The notes under the pieces: model-generated | Seen by the model: only the letters and a program-made list of their open reading frames with translations | What the model was told of the DNA's origin: nothing | Databases searched by the model: none | Source of the DNA: Verrucomicrobiia bacterium | Lineage (GTDB): Bacteria > Verrucomicrobiota > Verrucomicrobiia > Limisphaerales > UBA11358 | Reading direction: 5' to 3' | DNA: 54,500 nucleotides | Assembly: GCA_036268155.1 (NCBI GenBank) | Contig: DATAUQ010000095.1 | Span: 1-54,500, forward strand | In this document: piece after piece, positions 5,419-54,500 of the stretch | How the letters are laid out: each line of letters begins with the position of its first letter | Position numbering within the stretch: the first letter of the stretch is position 1 | Position numbers and translations under genes: made by a program

Positions 5419-5954
5419 TCACGGAATTGGTCGAGAAATACAAGCAGCCTGTGATGAATTTTGTTTTCCGCTCGCTGCGTGACGAGGCCGAGGCGGAGGA
5501 TCTGGCGCAAAATGTTTTTCTGCAAGTCTTCAAATCCCGCGCACGCTACGAGCGCACGGCGAAATTTTCCACTTGGCTGTTCACCATCGCGCGGAATTTG
5601 TGCCTGAACGAAATCCGCCGCCGCTCGCGCCATCCCGCCGAATCGCTCGAAGAAACACATCCTGAAAACGAAGACCAGCCGTCACGGCAATACGAGGACA
5701 AGAAAATTTTTCTGCCGACGGAAAATGTATTGCACGGCGAACTCGCCAAAAAAATCGAGGAAGCGCTGGCCGAACTGCCGGAGAACCAGCGCACCGCCAT
5801 CTTGCTCTGCCGTCAGGACGAATTGAGTTACGAAGAGATCGCCGAGGTTTTGGACTGCTCGCTGTCCGCCACGAAATCGCTCATCCATCGCGGACGCGAA
5901 ACGCTCAAGGAAAAACTCAAGCCGTATCTGCAAACCGGCGAGTGGACGGAATAG
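5349..5954 (+). CDS. RNA polymerase sigma-70 factor, ECF subfamily
   Basis: Region 2 (EDLAQNVFLQVFKSRARYERTAKFSTWLFTIARNLCLNEIRRR) and region 4 (LPENQRTAILLCRQDELSYEEIAEVLDCSLSATKSLIHRGRETLKEKL). Confidence 0.9.
   Translation: MMPIQPDPDAVLMLRVKRGDRAAFTELVEKYKQPVMNFVFRSLRDEAEAEDLAQNVFLQVFKSRARYERTAKFSTWLFTIARNLCLNEIRRRSRHPAESLEETHPENEDQPSRQYEDKKIFLPTENVLHGELAKKIEEALAELPENQRTAILLCRQDELSYEEIAEVLDCSLSATKSLIHRGRETLKEKLKPYLQTGEWTE
5889..5946. repeat. 58-bp direct repeat, copy 1 (the last codons of the ECF sigma gene)
   Basis: cgcggacgcgaaacgctcaaggaaaaactcaagccgtatctgcaaaccggcgagtgga is identical at 6365..6422 (hand aligned). Confidence 0.9.
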
Positions 5955-6364
5955 ATTTTGGAACGCGTGAAAATTTTTGTCCCGCAGGGACGACGGAAAT
6001 TAGCCAGCTACGAAGTGGCTGGATTCGTGCGAAAAAACGATGCGTCCTGAAAGGACGCTGGAACTCGTCGTCGCATTTTCCACCGTCCTTTCAGGACGGA
6101 TTTTATTTTTGGACGGCTGACCCGGCACTTTGTGCCGGGCTAATTTCCGGTGTCGCTTTGCGACGGTTTTTTTCCAGCGGACATTTTCGATTAGCGCCGT
6201 AGGTGCGGCATATTTGTAGAAAACCGTCTGATAAAATTTTCCAAGCTCCGTCAGGAGCGACATGGTGGCCGTCCGCAAGGACCGAATATGCCGCTCCTAC
6301 GGAGCTTTTTCATTTTGTGAACGGCGGGCTACAAAGATGCCGCGCCGACGGCGCTCCGAAAGGG
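5955..6364. repeat. composite block of hairpin (REP/MITE-like) repeat units
   Basis: Consecutive stem-loops: gtcccgcagggac, gtcctgaaaggac...gtcctttcaggac, cccggcactttgtgccggg, gcgccgtaggtgcggc, gctccgtcaggagc, gctcctacggagc. Units recur at 21270..21530 and 35896..36070. Confidence 0.8.
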
Positions 6365-6422
6365 CGCGGACGCGAAACGCTCAAGGAAAAACTCAAGCCG
6401 TATCTGCAAACCGGCGAGTGGA
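6365..6422. repeat. 58-bp direct repeat, copy 2 (orphan copy of the sigma gene 3' end, followed by its own stop)
   Basis: Identical to 5889..5946. Here it reads ...GRETLKEKLKPYLQTGEWSD*, against ...GEWTE* in the intact gene. Confidence 0.9.
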
Positions 6423-6870: not shown

Positions 6871-7505
6871 TTCGGCCCATAATTTTCGCGCAAAAAATCA
6901 TCCTTATGGCTATGGCTAATAAAACAAGAGTGAAACTGAATTGGCGTTGCTGCTTCAATAAGGTCAGGAAGGTAGTCGAGTAAAATTGGAGAAAGTCCGA
7001 TCCCCTTGAGAAATTTTATAGGAAGTCCATTGCCAGCTTGGTAGAGGCATTCAACACCAATTGACGATGGAGATACATGAATAACAGTTTCCAATCCCAC
7101 ACAGGTTTCCATATCCACATCGGCAAAAACTGTTTTCCCCATGCGAGATTCTCGAAAAATTGTTCCAAACAAATGGGAACCAACAAACATAGTGCTTTCT
7201 AGTGAGGCTTTGTAAAAATTTGCTTTGGCAAGGTCGGCTTCAGCAAAACTAGCTTCATTTAATTGTGCGTCGCGAAAATTAGCCCCATCTAAAATAGCAT
7301 CTTCAAAATTTGCCCCAGTTAAATCACAGCCAACAAATTCAGCGTTGCGTAATATAGCGCTCTTAAAATTTTGCCCGCTTAAATTTTCTCCAGAAAGATT
7401 TTCGTTTTCCAAATAAACGCCGCGAAAATCCGGATTTTCAGACGCAATTATATCCTGCCAGCTTCTTGAATCTGGAAGCGTGTGTGATTTTTTCCCAATA
7501 GCCAT
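6867..7505 (-). CDS. pentapeptide-repeat protein ending in the first TIR motif; N-terminal fragment of the split gene
   Basis: A run of A(D/N)LxX-type pentapeptides (NLSGENLSGQNFKSAILRNAEFVGCDLTGANFEDAILDGANFRDAQLNEASFAEADLAKANFYKASL), then 'FHSCFISHSHKDD'. It overlaps the next ORF by 4 nt, and the frames rejoin at the T6 run (plus-strand A6 at 6892..6897). Confidence 0.75.
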   Translation of the reverse strand: MAIGKKSHTLPDSRSWQDIIASENPDFRGVYLENENLSGENLSGQNFKSAILRNAEFVGCDLTGANFEDAILDGANFRDAQLNEASFAEADLAKANFYKASLESTMFVGSHLFGTIFRESRMGKTVFADVDMETCVGLETVIHVSPSSIGVECLYQAGNGLPIKFLKGIGLSPILLDYLPDLIEAATPIQFHSCFISHSHKDDFLRENYGPK

Positions 7506-7512
7506 GGATTGT

Positions 7513-8412
7513 TTATTTCTCCCGCTTCAAAAGAAATTCCGCCAGCGCTTCGAGCGCAATGGCTTTGCCTTTGAAAATTTTCAGCGCGGCAAACGCCTTG
7601 GCCGTCAGTTGCGCCGCGATCTGCCGCGATTTTTCCAGCCCGACAATCGCCGGGTAGGTCGCCTTTTGCACGGCCACGTCCTTGCCCGCCGTCTTGCCGA
7701 GCTGCTCACTGGTCTGCGTCACGTCGAGGATGTCGTCAATCACCTGAAACGCGAGGCCGACGTGGTAGCCGAAGTCGGTCAGCGCGGCGAGCTGCGCGGG
7801 TGTGCAGTTCGCGCTCATGCCGCCGAGCCGCACGGAACAGCACAGCAGCGCGGAGGTCTTGCGCTCGTGGATGAATTTCAGTTCGGCGATGGAAAGTTTT
7901 TTGCCTTCGCCTTCCAAATCCGCCACCTGCCCGGCGACGAGCTGCAACGAGCCGGACGCTTTTGCGATTTCCAAAATAATTTTGTCGTGCGGATAGCGCG
8001 GGAATTTTTTGCATTGCGCGGCGATCTCGAACGCCTGCGTCAACAGCGCGTCGCCCGCGAGCACGGCGATGCCTTCGCCGAAAACTTTGTGGTTGGTCGG
8101 CTTGCCCCGGCGGAAATCGTCGTTGTCCATCGCGGGCAGATCGTCGTGGATGAGCGAGTAAGTGTGAATGCACTCCACGGCGCACGCGAGCGGCATGGCG
8201 GCCGCGTCGCTGCCACCACACGCTTCGGCGGCGGCCAAGAGCAAAGCCGGGCGCATTCTTTTTCCGCCGGCAAAGAGCGAGTATCGCATCGCCTTGTGGA
8301 TCGTGGCAGGCTTGGTTTTTTCCGACGGCAGGAATTTATCGAGCGCGGCATTGGCGGTTTCGGTGCGCGTGGCGAGGAATTGGTTCAGATCGAATTGTTT
8401 TGATGCGGGCAT
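7513..8412 (-). CDS. ispA: polyprenyl synthetase (farnesyl/geranylgeranyl diphosphate synthase)
   Basis: First DDxxD motif region 'ECIHTYSLIHDDLPAMDNDDFRRGKPTNHKVFG' and second 'LAFQVIDDILDV'. The likely start is the ATG at 8412 (MPASKQFDL); the ORF-track start at 8448 is an upstream extension. Confidence 0.85.
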   Translation of the reverse strand: MPASKQFDLNQFLATRTETANAALDKFLPSEKTKPATIHKAMRYSLFAGGKRMRPALLLAAAEACGGSDAAAMPLACAVECIHTYSLIHDDLPAMDNDDFRRGKPTNHKVFGEGIAVLAGDALLTQAFEIAAQCKKFPRYPHDKIILEIAKASGSLQLVAGQVADLEGEGKKLSIAELKFIHERKTSALLCCSVRLGGMSANCTPAQLAALTDFGYHVGLAFQVIDDILDVTQTSEQLGKTAGKDVAVQKATYPAIVGLEKSRQIAAQLTAKAFAALKIFKGKAIALEALAEFLLKREK

Positions 8413-21837: not shown

Positions 21838-21951
21838 TTATTTCTTCCCATGCACCTTCGCCGCGACTTTCAGGCGCAGCGCGTTGAGTCGGATGAAGCC
21901 GGTGGCGTCGTCCTGGTTGTAGGCCTTGGTCGGGTCGGCTTCCATCGTGGC
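21838..21951 (-). pseudogene. orphan copy of the argG 3' end (last 37 codons plus stop)
   Basis: It translates to [37 protein letters not shown]. By hand count it has 9 mismatches over 111 nt against 22741..22851, all synonymous. Confidence 0.85.
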
Positions 21952-21962
21952 CGGGTTTGGGT

Positions 21963-22565
21963 TCATGCTTGCTCCAATCGTTTCTGCCAGAGTTTGGTCA
22001 GTGGCGTCCAGTCCAATCTGTCGGCGGCTTCCAATGCCTGAATGTAATTCTTGCGGGTGGTGTCGTTCTCTGGAGCAAGTTCGACGGGAGGCAATTCCTG
22101 TCGGCGCAAAATTTCGGCGAGCAGCAGACGGGTGGCGCGTCCGTTGAAATCAGGGAACGGATGAATGAACAGGATGCGTCCTTCGGCAAAGGCGAGCGTT
22201 TCCAGCAGCAGCGATTCTTTTCCGATGGACAATTCGGTCAGCCGCACATTCAAATCGGCAAAGTAATCGCGGACAAGCAGCGGGACTTGATGCGGAAGCG
22301 GCGGTGAGTGCTGGCCGACTTTGATTTCGGTTGCGCGAAACTTTCCCGTCCAATCGGGCGTGAGATCGCCGCAGATATTTTTGTGGAGGTCAAGCAGGAG
22401 GGATTCGTCCAGCGGGCGCGCAGCAAAAATGCCGTCCTCAATGTCTTGCAACACCCGCAAGACGCGCTCGGCCAGCAGCGGCGCGAGTTGCGAATAGGAC
22501 AAAATCCCGCGCGTCGTTTCTACGAAGCGCGTGGCGTGCGGCGGTTGTGTAGAGTCTTCAGCCAT
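21963..22565 (-). CDS. Fic family protein (toxin of a class-I Fic module)
   Basis: The Fic motif variant is HPFPDFNGRATR (canonical HxFx[D/E]GNGRxxR, with F in place of the first G). The start overlaps the upstream small ORF. Confidence 0.85.
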   Translation of the reverse strand: MAEDSTQPPHATRFVETTRGILSYSQLAPLLAERVLRVLQDIEDGIFAARPLDESLLLDLHKNICGDLTPDWTGKFRATEIKVGQHSPPLPHQVPLLVRDYFADLNVRLTELSIGKESLLLETLAFAEGRILFIHPFPDFNGRATRLLLAEILRRQELPPVELAPENDTTRKNYIQALEAADRLDWTPLTKLWQKRLEQA

Positions 22566-22696
22566 TCAAAATCCACCGGTTCGCCTTCAAACGCCATGCT
22601 CGCCGCGACCTGGTGCGGCACATCCGCCCAGCGACGAGCTTTGCGCTCCGCTGGTTTCAGTTTTCGCCAATCAGCAATTTTCTTCTGCCAAGTCAT
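22520..22696 (-). CDS. VbhA-like Fic antitoxin (58 codons, below the ORF-track cutoff)
   Basis: My translation is MTWQKKIADWRKLKPAERKARRWADVPHQVAASMAFEGEPVDFEWLKTLHNRRTPRAS*. It contains S-M-A-F-E-G, the [S/T]xxxE[G/N] inhibitory-helix motif, and overlaps the Fic start by 46 nt. Confidence 0.65.
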   Translation of the reverse strand: MTWQKKIADWRKLKPAERKARRWADVPHQVAASMAFEGEPVDFEWLKTLHNRRTPRAS

Positions 22697-22734
22697 GTTT
22701 GTAATCTACACGAACCACCGTGTTGCGCAAAGGT

Positions 22735-23964
22735 TCACTTTTTCTTTCCATGCACCTTGGCCGCGACTTTCAGGCGTAGCGCATTGAGCCGGATGAAGCC
22801 AGTGGCGTCGTCCTGATTGTAGGCTTTCGTCGGGTCGGCTTCCATCGTGGCGATGTGCGGATTGTAGAGGCTCACCTTACTCTTGCGTCCGCTGACCATG
22901 ATGTTGCCTTTGTAGAGTTTCACGCGCACCGTGCCGGTCACGTTCTTCTGGCTCTCGGTCACGTAGGCCTGCAACGCGAGGCGTTCGGGCGCATACCAAA
23001 AGCCGTTGTAGACCAACTCGGCATATTTCGGGATGAGCGCGTCGCGCTGGTGCATGACTTCGCGATCCATCGTGAGGCTTTCCATCTGCCGATGCGCAAA
23101 ATGCAGAATCGCGCCGCCGGGCGTTTCATAAACGCCGCGCGATTTCATGCCGACGAACCGGTTCTCCACCATGTCCACGCGCCCGACGCCGTGTTTGCCG
23201 CCGAGTTTGTTCAACGTCTTCATCACGCCGAGCGGAGAAAGTTTTTTGCCGTTCACCGCGACGCAATTGCCTTTGACGAAATCGAGCGTGACGAATTCCG
23301 GCTTGTCCGGCGCATCTTCGGGAAAAACGGAGAGCGTCGTGAAATAATTTTTGTTCTTCGGGTCGAACGAATCGAACCACGGGTCTTCGAGAATCCCGGC
23401 CTCGTAGGAAATATGCAGAAGATTCCGATCCATCGAGAATGATTTCTTCGCGCTGGCCTGCACGGGGATATTGTGCTTGGCGCAGTAATCAATCATCTCC
23501 TGCCGTCCGGGAAATTCGTTGCGATAGCGTTCGTCGCGCCACGGAGCAATGACTTGCAAATCCGGCGCGAGCGCGGCGGCGGTGAGTTCGAAGCGGACTT
23601 GGTCGTTTCCTTTGCCGGTCGCACCGTGCGCGATGGCATCGGCCTTTTCTTTCTTCGCGATCTCGACCATGCGCTTGGCGATGAGCGGACGCGCAATGGA
23701 CGTGCCGAGAAAATACTGGCCTTCATAAATCGCACCCGCGTGAATCATCGGATAAATAAAATCGCGGGCGAATTCTTCCTGCAAATCGTCAATGTAGATT
23801 TTGGACGCGCCGGTCTTGATGGCTTTGGCTTCGAGGCCGTCGAGTTCCTCTTCCTGCCCGATGTCGGCGCAGAAGCCGATCATCTCGGCGTTGTATTTTT
23901 CCTTGATCCAGGACATCAGCACCGAGGTGTCGAGTCCGCCGGAGTAAGCTAAAACAATTTTCAT
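22735..23964 (-). CDS. argG: argininosuccinate synthase
   Basis: [15 protein letters not shown]...[15 protein letters not shown]...ISYEAG are canonical ArgG motifs. Confidence 0.95.
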
Positions 23965-36078: not shown

Positions 36079-36816
36079 TCAAGCGCGTTTTGGAGTCTTT
36101 CGATTTTGCGTCGGCAGAAGCAAAATAAGCACCAGCGCAATCATAAGCGGATAAAAACAAGCCGAAAGTAGAACATCCCCAATTGAAACTGTAAGATGAA
36201 GGCGAGCCAAATCTAATCCCATTGATTTAATTTTTGCATTGTGCGTTATTGCTGCAACCATCACAAATGCCGCCGCCATGGCAATGATTCCCAAAACTCC
36301 AATTGTCAGACGCAGCCGATTTTCAATAAGCCGTGTTAGTTTGGAAAGCCTGTGAACCATTTTTTCCGACCTCACCAACATGGCTATAACCAACGGAATC
36401 AAAATTGGTGAAAAAGCCACAACATCGCGTGCAATTTCCTGCATCATTTGAAGGGAATCGCTTTCCAATGGCGTGCGGACGATTTGCAGATTAAAGGCCA
36501 TAACTCTAATCACACCAATCAGAATGCTTGATAAAAAAAGTGCCAGCATCCCCCAGAACGCTCGTTCGCGCCAAACTTTGGTCGGATCGGCTTTCACAAA
36601 TTCTTCGCCAATTTGTTGCGGCTGACCAACGCGGCGGCGTGCGAGCCAGAAAGATTCTTCGTCGTTCAAGCCGCGTTGCTGGAATCCGGCGATGGCGTCG
36701 CGCAGGTGCGTTTCCAGTTCGCGCCGGTCGTCGGACGCGAGATTGGGTTGCGCGGCCAGTTCGTTCCGCCAGTTTTCAACGGCGGCGTTCAGATCGAAAC
36801 GGGTTTGATTTTCCAT
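36079..36816 (-). CDS. membrane protein with a conserved soluble N-terminal domain (PadR-associated), paralog 1
   Basis: MENQTRFDLNAAVENWRNELAAQPNLASDDRRELETHLRDAIAGFQQRGLNDEESFWLARRRVG..., then 4-5 TM segments. It ends PTQNRKTPKRA. Confidence 0.7.
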   Translation of the reverse strand: MENQTRFDLNAAVENWRNELAAQPNLASDDRRELETHLRDAIAGFQQRGLNDEESFWLARRRVGQPQQIGEEFVKADPTKVWRERAFWGMLALFLSSILIGVIRVMAFNLQIVRTPLESDSLQMMQEIARDVVAFSPILIPLVIAMLVRSEKMVHRLSKLTRLIENRLRLTIGVLGIIAMAAAFVMVAAITHNAKIKSMGLDLARLHLTVSIGDVLLSACFYPLMIALVLILLLPTQNRKTPKRA

Positions 36817-36823
36817 AACTATT

Positions 36824-37612
36824 TTAAGCGCGTTTTGGAGCCTTGCGATTTTGCGTCGGCATGAGCCAAGCAATTAAGGCAATGAGTATTGCTGGATAAA
36901 GCAAACTCATAAAATTCGCAAAAATAACAAAGGACAATGACAGGCCGTCTGACTGGGTTTCGTATCGCAATAAGGAATTCGCCAGCAAAAGAATATAAAA
37001 CGAAAAAAGTGTCGTGGAAATAAACAGAAACCGGCGGCGTGACTGGAAGAAAAATTGCATCCATGAGAAACCTTTGCTTAACCGTCCGCGAGACAAAAGC
37101 CACGCGATTCCGATCACCGGCAGCAAACTTAAGAAATTAAAAACGATTCTTGAGCTTGGACTGAACAGTAAAGCGTAAAGATCAATATTCGATGGCACTG
37201 GCAAATAAAATCGAACCCAGTCAGGAAACGGAGAAACAGAATGGTATTTATTCAGGAAATATGGCGTCGTGACGGTAGTTTGAAAAATTGCCCACGCGAT
37301 TGATAAAATTCCCGACCAGAGACGAATTGCGAGAAGGATTATTGCAGCCCAAAAAATCCGCTCGCGCCAGACTTTGGCCGGATCGGCTTTCACAAATTCT
37401 TCGCCGAGTTGCGGCGGTTGACCCACACGCTTGCGCGCGAGCCAGAAAGATTCTTCGTCGTTCAAACCGCGTTGCTGGAATCCGGCGATGGCGTCGCGCA
37501 AATGCGTTTCCAATTCGCTTCGATCATCGGACGCGAGATTGGGTTGTGCGGCGAGTTCGTTCCGCCAGTTTTCCACGGCGGCGTTCAGATCGAACCGGGT
37601 TTGATTTTCCAT
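36824..37612 (-). CDS. membrane protein with a conserved soluble N-terminal domain (PadR-associated), paralog 2
   Basis: The same N-terminal 88 aa (7 differences by hand count), a different TM core, and a similar tail PTQNRKAPKRA. Confidence 0.7.
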   Translation of the reverse strand: MENQTRFDLNAAVENWRNELAAQPNLASDDRSELETHLRDAIAGFQQRGLNDEESFWLARKRVGQPPQLGEEFVKADPAKVWRERIFWAAIILLAIRLWSGILSIAWAIFQTTVTTPYFLNKYHSVSPFPDWVRFYLPVPSNIDLYALLFSPSSRIVFNFLSLLPVIGIAWLLSRGRLSKGFSWMQFFFQSRRRFLFISTTLFSFYILLLANSLLRYETQSDGLSLSFVIFANFMSLLYPAILIALIAWLMPTQNRKAPKRA

Positions 37613-37923
37613 AATTTGCACAGGGAGTTGTGAACGGCCAGCCATTGCTGGCGTTCGGTTTTGAGGGCCTTGCGTCCGTCGGAACTGATGAAATAGTATT
37701 TGCGCTCGCGCCCGGTGTCGGCTTCCTTCCATTCGGAATCAATCAGGCCGTCGCGCTCGAGCCGGTGCAAAACGGGATAGAGCATCCCATCGCTCCACTC
37801 GATCTGGCCGCCGCTCAATTCGCGGACTTTCTGGATGATCTCGTAGCCATAGCTTTCGCCGCCCGCGAGGATGGAGAGCAGCAGCGGTTTCGAGGACGCG
37901 GCGACCAAATCTTTCGTAAGCAT
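37585..37923 (-). CDS. PadR family transcriptional regulator
   Basis: LLLSILAGGESYGYEIIQKVRELSGGQIEWSDGMLYPVLHRLERDGLIDSEWKEADTGRERKYYFISSDGRKAL is canonical PadR. The start is taken at the ATG at 37923. Confidence 0.9.
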   Translation of the reverse strand: MLTKDLVAASSKPLLLSILAGGESYGYEIIQKVRELSGGQIEWSDGMLYPVLHRLERDGLIDSEWKEADTGRERKYYFISSDGRKALKTERQQWLAVHNSLCKLWKIKPGSI

Positions 37924-38078
37924 GGCTGTCTTATACATTGAACTGGAAGGTGTGTCAATGCGAAAATTTGGGGCGCGGATGGTTCGTCCGCAAGTTCGGC
38001 GGATTCACGCGGGCAAGCCGCCCGCGCTCCGTTCGCGGCGGGATTGCGCGCGGAGTTTTTCCCGATTACATTCCGCTT

Positions 38079-52577: not shown

Positions 52578-52910
52578 ATGAACAAAAATAAAACATTAGT
52601 GCCGACGGAATTCGGCCCTGAAACGCGCTTCGAAGTGCGGGCCAATCCGCCCGCGCCATTTCGCGCCGTGCAGGAAAACGAATTCGAGCGGCTCAAGAAC
52701 AGACTGCTCGCGCAGCAATTGCTCGACGCCGCACCGGAGTTGAACGCCCCGCTGCGGCGCGCGGCCAACGACGCGGCGGCGCTCGCATGGGCGACCGTTT
52801 TCCCGCTGCTCGTGTTCCCGGTGCTGTTCGAGGAAAAAACCGATGCCGCCGTCCTGCGCGCCGGGCGGCAGGCGCGCATCTACGCCAACAGCCAGCTCAT
52901 CGCCGCATGA
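52578..52910 (+). CDS. hypothetical protein (110 aa)
   Basis: The ATG at 52578 is preceded by aaaggaaaataC (an SD-like AGGA). No family recognised. Confidence 0.5.
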   Translation: MNKNKTLVPTEFGPETRFEVRANPPAPFRAVQENEFERLKNRLLAQQLLDAAPELNAPLRRAANDAAALAWATVFPLLVFPVLFEEKTDAAVLRAGRQARIYANSQLIAA

Positions 52911-52926
52911 AAACGCGAATGGGCAA

Positions 52927-52996
52927 AGTGACAAGTGATGAGTGAAAAGTGACGAGCGTGTTTTTGCACGTCACTCGTCACCTGTCACTCATCACT
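52927..52996. repeat. palindromic intergenic element ('agtgacaagtgatgag' family)
   Basis: Arms agtgacaagtgatgagtgaaaagtgacgag / cgtcactcgtcacctgtcactcatcact. Same family as the recG-internal unit. Confidence 0.8.
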
Positions 52997-53007
52997 ATTT
53001 TGGAATC

Positions 53008-53082
53008 TTCGGAACGCGGACAGTTCCTCGCCGTGGAGTTTCAAGCGTCCGCTTGATGCGACACTGTCCGCATTCCTACGCC
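53008..53082. repeat. 75-bp structured direct repeat, copy 1
   Basis: ttcggaacgcggacagttcctcgccgtggagtttcaagcgtccgcttgatgcgacactgtccgcattcctacgcc. It has 3 mismatches against 53702..53776 and the internal stems gcggacagt/actgtccgc and caagcg/cgcttg. Confidence 0.9.
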
Positions 53083-53390
53083 GTTGGGAAGAACCGCGTC
53101 CAATCCTGTGCCGCGTGCAGGACGCGAATTACCACAATGGTCTCTTGAAACGGTTGGTAGAAAATCAGGTAATTGCGGAACCTCGGCACGACAAACCAGC
53201 GGATTTGCAAGTGGCGTGCCGCAGCCTTGCGGATGCGTCGTCCGATTTCAGGATGCTGCGCGAGAAAATCTGCTGTGTTGAGAATTGTCTGCCGAACCCG
53301 TCCCGCCGCCTCGGGATTGTCGGCGTCAATGCGGTTGGAAATTTCGTCCAAGTCGCACGCGGCCTTGAGACTGAACCTGGCCCGGATCAT
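53076..53390 (-). CDS. type II toxin-antitoxin system RelE/ParE family toxin
   Basis: 104 aa; 'A..DL.EI..RI..DNPEAA.R....I......L...P.IGR......R....RWFVVPRFRNYLIFY......I.VIRVLH...D' is the ParE pattern. It has a 4-nt overlap with the upstream antitoxin. Confidence 0.85.
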   Translation of the reverse strand: MIRARFSLKAACDLDEISNRIDADNPEAAGRVRQTILNTADFLAQHPEIGRRIRKAAARHLQIRWFVVPRFRNYLIFYQPFQETIVVIRVLHAAQDWTRFFPTA

Positions 53391-53611
53391 GACCGGCGCA
53401 ATTCGTCGGTGGTCTTCGATTGATCCAGATTTTCCAAACCTTCGTCCAGCAGCCGTTCCAATTCCGGCGTCATCACCACTTCAACGCCACGGCGGCGGGC
53501 TTGATGTTCGCTCAACGCCTCCAGCACGACTTCATCCGACCCTTTGTAACCGCTGGTTTGAACCAGTTCGGCGACGTAGCTTTCAAGATTTCGCGGCAAC
53601 GCGATATTCAT
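53387..53611 (-). CDS. type II antitoxin (ParD/CopG-like)
   Basis: 74 aa; 'MNIALPRNLESYVAELVQTSGYKGSDEVVLEALSEHQ' has the ParD-type N-terminus. It is coupled to the ParE-like toxin. Confidence 0.75.
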   Translation of the reverse strand: MNIALPRNLESYVAELVQTSGYKGSDEVVLEALSEHQARRRGVEVVMTPELERLLDEGLENLDQSKTTDELRRS

Positions 53612-53701
53612 GGGCTCAATTTAATGTGCTGCGAAATTCTGTCAACCTGTAACCCGCGCCAACGGCTTCTCGCCGCGCCTTTTTGTTTCCGGGAAATAAT
53701 T

Positions 53702-53776
53702 TTCGGAGCGCGGACAGTTCCTCGCCGTGGAGTTTCAAGCGTCCGCTTGATGCGACACTGTCCGTGTTCCTACGCC
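53702..53776. repeat. 75-bp structured direct repeat, copy 2
   Basis: See copy 1. It lies 694 bp to the right, immediately downstream of the stop of the 53783..54347 gene. Confidence 0.9.
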
Positions 53777-53782
53777 TTTGAA

Positions 53783-54500
<718 letters not shown>

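Follow-up and report, generated by a model that had tools for sequence, protein, structure and literature searches.

A ParDE-type toxin-antitoxin cassette between two copies of a resident spacer element beside murA in a soil Verrucomicrobium

The window analysed here is the entire contig C95 (54.5 kb) of a metagenome-assembled genome of a soil Verrucomicrobium (2.26 Mb in 168 contigs, 76% complete), and close to its right end a predicted toxin-antitoxin (TA) pair of the ParDE type lies between two direct copies of an 83-nt element, here called E, in the spacer between a conserved small open reading frame (ORF) and the convergent gene murA. The element is duplicated around the pair in the window, relatives with an empty site carry it once, and other relatives carry different TA pairs in the same bracket; other duplicated sequences bracket TA pairs at the ends of murA and argG, with foreign-looking downstream copies at argG, and TA loci across the window's own genome are enriched for brackets of this kind. 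With little more than even confidence, we lean towards the reading that the 83-nt repeat is a long target duplication, left when the ParD/ParE unit entered the spacer between small ORF and murA by recombination via a host-derived segment. The relatives compared are uncultured Limisphaerales (Verrucomicrobiota subdivision 3) sampled from soil, peat and bog, and all genomes in the comparison are metagenome-assembled; G-numbers (G000 to G128) denote genomes of relatives, L-numbers the loci fetched and C-numbers contigs.

The ParDE Cassette and Its Bracket

Read along the window, the locus consists of the conserved small ORF, a hairpin, left E, ParE, the ParD-like ORF, a promoter-like site, right E, an AT-rich ORF and the end of murA:

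52578..52910, plus strand: conserved 110-aa ORF, convergent with murA; serves as synteny anchor throughout the order (121 relatives, 80 loci kept)
52934..52996, plus strand: strong hairpin allele "hp2", an inverted repeat with 23-nt arms (RNA fold -38.9 kcal/mol, z -6.5), flanking left E on its left
53004..53086, no strand: left copy of E, nearest the small ORF (repeat search; covariance model R1, 103 bits); holds the ParE stop codon (CTA at 53076-53078)
53076..53390, minus strand: ParE-family toxin, 104 aa (Pfam PF05016, E 2.4e-15)
53387..53611, minus strand: putative ParD-like antitoxin, 74 aa (TIGR02606, 26.5 bits, E 4.9e-6, below cut-off; position and size fit an antitoxin)
53618..53645, minus strand: promoter-like site TTGACA-16-TAAATT, 10/12 matches and the best of the region, 6 nt upstream of the antitoxin start, at the 5' edge of the cassette
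53650..53697, plus strand: left flank of right E, CCCGCGCCAACGGCTTCTCGCCGCGCC plus a T-run (from alignments with relatives)
53698..53780, no strand: right copy of E, nearest murA (repeat search; covariance model R1, 104.8 bits); ends 2 nt before the stop codon of the ORF at 53783-54274
53783..54274, minus strand: AT-rich ORF, 163 aa, GC 0.39-0.43, in the variable slot between E and murA
54344..54500, minus strand: murA 3' end (Pfam PF00275); the contig stops within the gene, of which relatives have full-length orthologues

The two copies of E were delimited by a direct-repeat search, in which they are 94% identical (5 of 83 positions differ) and lie 694 nt apart from start to start, with an identical core of 55 nt (53016-53070 = 53710-53764) for which 100 shuffles gave an expectation of 0 matches. 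A preliminary description of this DNA had reported 75-bp direct repeats with three mismatches; the repeats are real, and their true length is 83 nt at the identity given above. It had also stated that the repeats enclose nothing other than a toxin and its antitoxin, which agrees with the 611 nt between the copies, where ParE, the ParD-like ORF and the promoter-like site are all that was found and no transposase, integrase or other mobility gene is present. The layout that it proposed, of a gene end with the element, a TA pair and a second copy of the element, is likewise borne out by the repeat and ORF analysis. Its AT-rich gene at 53783..54347, on the other hand, is not one open frame, and the actual ORF covers 53783-54274; this ORF has no family match and no flanking duplication of its own. 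The conserved 110-aa ORF gave no Pfam or NCBIfam match.

The 74-aa ORF has no Pfam match and overlaps the start of ParE by 4 nt. A small toxin of the ParE fold, an overlapping small antitoxin gene and a promoter-like site together make up the structure of a type II ParDE module, and the pair is therefore predicted from its gene layout to be such a module, forming a cassette unit of about 610 nt from the -35 box to the toxin stop codon.

The flanks of the two E copies differ in origin. In TA-less relatives, the small ORF has a terminator hairpin whose right arm and T-tract correspond to the segment at 53650..53697; according to the alignments, this segment accompanies the cassette in the window, in G012 and in G066, while left E is preceded by a different hairpin allele, hp2 (as in G003), than the one represented in the 50-nt flank of right E. 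With flanks from different alleles, the arrangement is a recombinant of two locus alleles that have E as their common segment. By alignment, hp2 is common to the window, G003, G061, G126, G128 and G077; at the same position, relatives have an unrelated, long hairpin, GGCGGGAAGTCGTTGGCGCGGGC...GCCCGCGCCAACGGCTTCTCGCC, from which it follows that the terminator of the small ORF has at least two or three alleles.

The Element E

In the window's assembly, E is present in two copies by BLAST and covariance model (with 76% of the genome assembled), so the reading of an abundant dispersed repeat, against which the preliminary description had asked for a genome-wide count, does not apply. Across nine species the element shows 91% mean column identity, and between the window and G034 it is 96% identical while the protein of the small ORF is just 74% identical, indicating that the sequence of E is under constraint. 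By these comparisons, E is a resident single-copy spacer element of constrained sequence, which may serve as a protein-binding site or as a 3'-end RNA element.

The repeats had further been described as foldable, and a 14-bp outer stem with inner stems was indeed found, with fold z-scores of -2.0 to -3.7 for 96-nt pieces (DNA and RNA) and of -2.6/-3.4 for the 83-nt unit. Among the 23 predicted pairs, RNAalifold on the nine species found 0 compensatory base-pair changes, the fold being without covariation support because the sequence is too conserved. The proposal that E acts as a terminator was not supported, as the terminator scan calls E on neither strand owing to the absence of a T-run; the tails next to the hairpin read GAAGATT... 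and TACGCC.... A search of Rfam gave no match on E at E <= 10 and ARAGORN found no tRNA or tmRNA on it, and a known RNA family or tRNA-type att site was rejected on these grounds. A REP/RAYT element was rejected as well, its copy number being too low and the RAYT-like gene of the genome being flanked by unrelated palindromes; that gene, an IS200/RAYT-like Y1 transposase of 154 aa, lies at C58:13258-13943 between REP-like palindromes (CGCCCCTACGGGGC) unrelated to E.

Empty Sites and Other Cassettes at the E Locus

The small ORF and convergent murA are kept as a pair across the order; the spacer measures about 120 nt at its shortest, where E is absent, and exceeds 2 kb at its longest. Strong matches to the covariance model of E were obtained in about 25 of 121 genomes of the genus, and in every relative whose context was inspected, E lies within the spacer that separates the small ORF from murA. 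Its sequence is better conserved than the DNA on either side. It occurs once per genome in G002, G003, G007, G010, G012, G030 and G034. The TA-less locus with a single copy that the preliminary description had suggested looking for was found in three of these: G034 has the minimal site, composed of small ORF, terminator hairpin, E, about 100 nt and the murA stop; G010 has a near-empty site with a single E; and in G002 one unrelated gene of 227 aa lies between E and murA. The slot between E and murA is variable, being filled by unrelated genes in G002, G069, G086, G066, G106 and G128.

Copies of the element that flank single cassettes elsewhere, for which the preliminary description had proposed a check, were found with different TA pairs in G069, G086 and G066. 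In G069, E brackets a ParE2/ParD2 pair whose ParE2 is 35% identical to the window ParE; G086 has a Phd/RelE-like pair in inverted orientation between its two copies; and G066 has the ParDE2 and the Phd/RelE-like pairs together between one pair of E. The ParDE2 pair also follows the single E of G003, and in its three contexts this cassette is sharply delimited, on one side by the toxin stop codon and on the other immediately 5' of the -35 box. The duplicated length at the E site depends on the event, with values of about 66, 75, 83 and 125-130 nt. Two copies of E also occur about 145 nt apart at L070 and about 600 nt apart in G117, with non-coding filler in both. In G061, a second locus (L055, G061:C2:269500-275500) has two E-like copies around a ParDE2 cassette, adjoins an apparently broken murA copy and lies 80 kb from the main murA locus, which could be a segmental duplication or a chimeric bin.

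An orthologue of the window's own cassette was found in G012, where the alignment of the locus, about 930 nt long, gives 87% column identity; E is complete on the ParD side and reduced to its last ~25 nt on the ParE side, and the junctions match those of the window. These matching junctions bear on the explanation that strain variants were concatenated through a common element during assembly. Such an artefact would fit the metagenomic origin of all the genomes, the position of the E-cassette locus only 700 nt from the contig end, and a repeat pair on C92 of the same genome that resembles a contig-end artefact. The two copies of E differ at 5/83 positions, though, and so do their flanks, and the arrangement recurs in assemblies made independently by different projects, in some of them on contigs that reach hundreds of kb or more, which together with G012 makes an assembly origin extremely improbable.

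Brackets Throughout the Genome of the Window

Self-comparison of the window's genome gave many direct-repeat pairs of 44-111 nt spaced 450-900 nt. The genes enclosed, their families confirmed by Pfam, comprise HicAB on C11, C14 and C65, ParE or RelE with an Unstab_antitox partner on C120 and C124, a ParE-like pair on C75, HEPN/nucleotidyltransferase on C89, a Fic pair after argG (window 21841-22851) and two pairs of small ORFs without known family. At the inspected loci, the repeats are local sequence, derived from the 3' end, 5' end or terminator of a neighbour, and the cassettes are co-oriented with the neighbouring gene, which is intact; on C65 the duplicated piece includes the point where two adjoining genes meet. 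The inserts measure 450-790 nt and extend from a -35-like hexamer to the toxin stop codon.

Duplications of 50-111 nt bracket 11 of 16 TA loci as against 46 of 1200 random 500-nt intervals (3.8%; Fisher p = 3e-12), a figure that is biased, since the 16 loci were found by homology with seeds taken mostly from bracketed loci; for TA loci found by homology alone, the count is two of six (p = 0.02). No common motif was found at the junctions in 11 junction pairs, and a recombinase end motif common to the cassettes was thus rejected. The duplicated segments at the ten other TA loci are coding or intergenic sequence with no structure above background (p = 0.15), for which reason a hairpin-driven mechanism was rejected too; the part of the preliminary description that gave the fold of E a role in the arrangement does not stand, and the hairpin is incidental. 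With neither a junction motif nor structure in the other segments, no single sequence-specific site is evident.

Several other repeats were recorded in the same genome. The direct repeat of 256 nt at window 36563-37614, whose copies are 90% identical and lie 796 nt apart, represents the 5' parts of two adjacent minus-strand paralogues and no cassette bracket; near it a weak match to the E model (22 bits) lies at 37963-38037. At window 5889-6422, two identical 58-nt copies of the 3' end of a sigma-factor-like gene, in direct orientation and 476 nt apart, enclose palindromic REP-like sequence with no clear TA genes. At C20:2074-3480, 51-nt direct repeats consisting of a tRNA 3' end (…GGTTCGAGTCCTGCCGGATGCACCA) surround 1.3 kb with no intact integrase, which looks like a decayed integrative element. 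The C92 pair already mentioned belongs to the same list.

The Same Bracket at the Ends of murA and argG

In the preliminary description, E was taken for a special site of cassette boundaries. This could not be upheld, as TA pairs at the ends of murA and of argG are bracketed likewise by copies of the gene end, the latter within the window itself:

L061 5235-6078 (G106) and L016 6367-7186 (G023): murA-end brackets, VapBC-type pair
L130 5083-5831 (G128) and L009 ~7030-7780 (G003): murA-end brackets, HicAB pair
21841..22851, minus strand: second instance in the window, bracket at the argG 3' end, 111-nt copies at 21841-21951 and 22741-22851, 92% identical
21963-22565: Fic-domain gene, 200 aa (Fic Pfam E 8e-12), within the argG-end bracket
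22520-22696: 58-aa ORF, partner of the Fic gene within the argG-end bracket

The motif of the murA 3' end is present twice in G106, G128 and G023. Copies of 79 nt (92% identical), made up of the last ~70 nt of murA plus the stop codon, enclose a PIN/VapBC-type pair in G106 and G023, and copies of 81 nt from the same segment enclose a HicAB pair in G128 and G003; VapC and HicB end at the same TGA, at the edge of the repeat. The last 108-142 nt of argG occur in one, two or three copies in relatives, and the cassettes found there across the order include Fic, ParDE, an ORF6N gene and others. G040, which belongs to a different family, has a three-copy array of the form argG-S-(ORF6N gene)-S-(ParD/ParE)-S, with S for the copy, and in G003 and G010 the argG site is empty. 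All argG-end copies begin at the argG stop codon, and seven of the eight downstream copies end at the same nucleotide despite the different cassettes that follow. The Fic cassette is found in two genomes, G000 and G038, whose argG-proximal copies have the same stop-codon end (TGA stop plus an extra codon), the outcome expected from a crossover within the repeat. Often, a downstream copy resembles a copy from another lineage more than it does its partner, as in G022, whose downstream copy is 81% identical to its partner and 91% to the G040 copy, a similarity of modest weight because the sequences are short.

The constant boundaries at argG and murA make a site-specific recombinase acting in trans a serious rival. 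According to this explanation, the cassettes are miniature integrative elements whose repeats are attL/attR sites produced by one or more tyrosine recombinases encoded elsewhere, each cassette carrying a replacement copy of its target; small cassettes would thus be integrated into gene 3' ends or E, in a manner resembling islands at tRNA or gene ends or cis-mobilisable elements without integrase. It accounts for boundaries that agree to the nucleotide between different cassettes at both sites, for tandem arrays such as that of G040 and for the target gene always being intact, and the genus is rich in tyrosine recombinases, with the tRNA 3' end duplication without integrase on C20 in the same genome. 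It does not sit well with at least 11 different duplicated sequences in one genome that have no common motif or structure, with a duplication length at the E site that differs by event, or with the lack of an integrase adjoining any inspected site, and overall we judge it rather unlikely.

The origin of the downstream copies bears in turn on duplication of the target in situ, in which a staggered break or a switch of replication template captures a free TA fragment and copies 45-140 nt without any homology on the cassette. The variable length (44-142 nt) and the site-specific nature of the duplicated sequences are what such events would produce, selection would keep just those sparing the flanking genes (for example the one on C65, at the junction of two adjoining genes), and this was the first reading given to the cases of restriction-modification genes (PMC2853133). 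The downstream copies are, however, often not the most similar to the resident copy, right E carries a flank from another allele of the locus, and identical boundaries for different cassettes would be unexpected from random breaks; in-situ duplication is therefore placed third among the mechanisms, as an unlikely one.

Relation of E to Integron attC Sites

The genome of the window encodes an integron integrase of 375 aa (TIGR02249, 403 bits against a cut-off of 265), and integron integrases above the cut-off are present in 19 of 41 genomes of the genus. The region C60:2100-9700 is a classical integron with about 12 cassettes and canonical attC sites of ~100 nt (GCCTAAC...GTTAGGC), in which several of the short ORFs are translated attC sites. 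One may thus consider E an unusual attC, and its locus a CALIN, a cluster of attC sites that lacks an integrase and would rely on the integron integrase encoded elsewhere in the genome. E does resemble attC sites in its length (57-141 nt for attC), in being an imperfect palindrome and in lying at the 3' end of a cassette's ORF, and in many copies a GTTGRR motif is found 6 nt away from the stem. A search pattern that combined the paired R''(..AAC)/R'(GTT..) box with an L box beside it recovered 12/12 attC sites of the C60 array, used as control, and found neither copy of E, relaxed thresholds included. The boxes R'' (RYYYAAC) and R' (GTTRRRY) are not paired in E, which has the GTTGRR motif on one side alone, and in place of an L box, unpaired spacer and extrahelical bases there is a stem of 14 bp that runs uninterrupted from the hairpin base. 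Given this controlled scan and the unrelatedness of E to the resident attC sequences, a canonical attC was rejected. Since E is moreover single-copy and syntenic in relatives, and the same bracket is made of plain coding sequence at murA and argG, even an unusual attC is very unlikely.

A Possible Route of Entry

We favour recombination via a host-derived segment, which we place first among the mechanisms. A compact ParD/ParE transcription unit of ~610 nt would enter the conserved spacer that lies between murA and the small ORF convergent with it, by recombination through a short host-derived segment that adjoins the cassette, with no recombinase in the insert. This might occur as Campbell-type entry of a circle, made of the cassette and the segment, into the resident copy, or equivalently as replacement of the whole locus by homologous recombination with DNA of a relative that already carries the duplicated arrangement. 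Either route would yield segment-cassette-segment with the neighbouring genes and their signals intact, and would permit both tandem arrays and loss of the cassette via recombination between two copies, after which TA addiction would favour retention of the cassette. The duplicated segment appears to move with the cassette, as judged from the common end of the argG copies in the Fic genomes, the foreign-like downstream copies and the 50-nt allele flank at right E. The recombination would be homologous (RecA-type) rather than site-specific.

Some points weigh against this scenario. The constant boundaries, shared by 7/8 of the argG downstream copies and by the murA-edge TGA with different cassettes, are not obviously predicted by independent homologous or random events. 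They would be expected if a site-specific enzyme were at work, or if cassettes had replaced one another within a single old duplication. Homologous recombination on 50-110 nt at 80-95% identity is inefficient, and the recombination model does not explain how each site first came to be duplicated. Metagenome-assembled genomes were used throughout, yet the pattern recurs in many assemblies from different studies and the copies are diverged.

In a wider and more tentative reading, Limisphaerales would host a cassette system without a recombinase in the cassette, in which minimal promoter-to-stop units, mostly TA pairs, travel together with 50-140 nt copied from a conserved host gene end or spacer, which would serve them as a portable attachment site; within that reading, such a system probably exists in many other prokaryotes. 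We regard this as a possibility that has the balance of probability against it. If it is true, cassettes enter the same landing pad in different genera without harming the host gene, stack in tandem and get exchanged, the system would functionally be an "integron without integrase" whose repeats are borrowed host sequence, and the constant boundaries at argG and murA would reflect a defined step of cutting or copying.

The movement of chromosomal TA pairs is an old open question; they have been called "mobile cassettes," and lie mostly outside recognisable mobile elements. The present loci offer a concrete signature in promoter-to-stop cassettes bracketed by long duplications of conserved host sequence, with reused landing pads (E, murA end and argG end), arrays, empty sites and a duplicated piece that appears to move with the cassette. 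Such duplications make truncated pseudo-copies of the ends of essential genes, a source of confusion in annotation, and their sites are predictable hotspots for accessory and defence genes.

Comparison with Known Systems

Among known systems, REP/BIME palindromes resemble E in that it is a GC-rich imperfect palindrome in a convergent spacer just past stop codons, but E has 1-3 copies per genome at one locus instead of tens to hundreds. The cassettes of integrons, attC arrays and CALIN (Cury et al., 2016, PMC4889954) are likewise short and mostly co-oriented, with similar repeats of ~60-140 nt at the 3' end of each ORF; TA pairs are frequent among them, and a true integron is present in the same genome. 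They differ in the attC architecture, the R''/R' and L boxes, unpaired spacer and extrahelical bases being absent from E, and in that the repeats described here copy resident chromosomal sequence, including plain coding sequence, with no adjacent integrase and with cassettes that have their own promoters. Integrase islands in the 3' ends of tRNA and protein genes, and their integrase-less derivatives, also duplicate the target end, restore the gene and leave direct repeats, and they too show tandem accretion at one site and constant boundaries for different elements. In contrast, the inserts here are of 0.45-0.8 kb with a TA pair alone, many unrelated targets are used per genome, and neither a nearby integrase nor a common core motif is found.

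The closest parallel is the class of insertions with long target duplication known for restriction-modification units, in which an insert of <20 kb without a mobility gene lies between repeats of >30 bp (from ~45 to >400 bp) that align with one copy in a genome with the empty site, by a mechanism not established (Furuta, Abe and Kobayashi, 2010, PMC2853133). The class has also been documented by Mruk and Kobayashi (2013, PMC3874152), and long target duplication by restriction-modification genes is attributed by a citing paper to Nobusato et al. (2000, Gene 259:99). At the E locus, the repeats exceed 30 bp (83 nt, 94%), the 611-nt insert is below 20 kb and has no mobility gene, both copies of E align with the single E of G034, G010 and G002 (the left flank in the window being the different allele hp2), and the repeat is not multi-copy, being found just twice in the assembly of 2.26 Mb; a ParE/ParD pair takes the place of the restriction-modification unit as cargo. 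As all the structural features of the class are present and the cargo alone differs, the locus is an instance of the class extended to TA cargo.

The likeness lies in a small "addiction" unit without a mobility gene and in variable, site-specific repeats that often overlap the 3' end of a gene. The difference lies in the cargo, here type II, HEPN/MNT or Fic TA pairs, and in the extent, with 11/16 TA loci in one genome, sites that are reused, some boundaries constant to the nucleotide, and tandem arrays. Long target duplication of classical TA pairs was not found described in the literature searched, an absence that is no proof. The phenomenon is lineage-wide, site-reusing and poorly understood, and it extends what was known just for restriction-modification units to TA modules, a much larger world, which suggests that the addiction genes of both kinds have a common route of entry.

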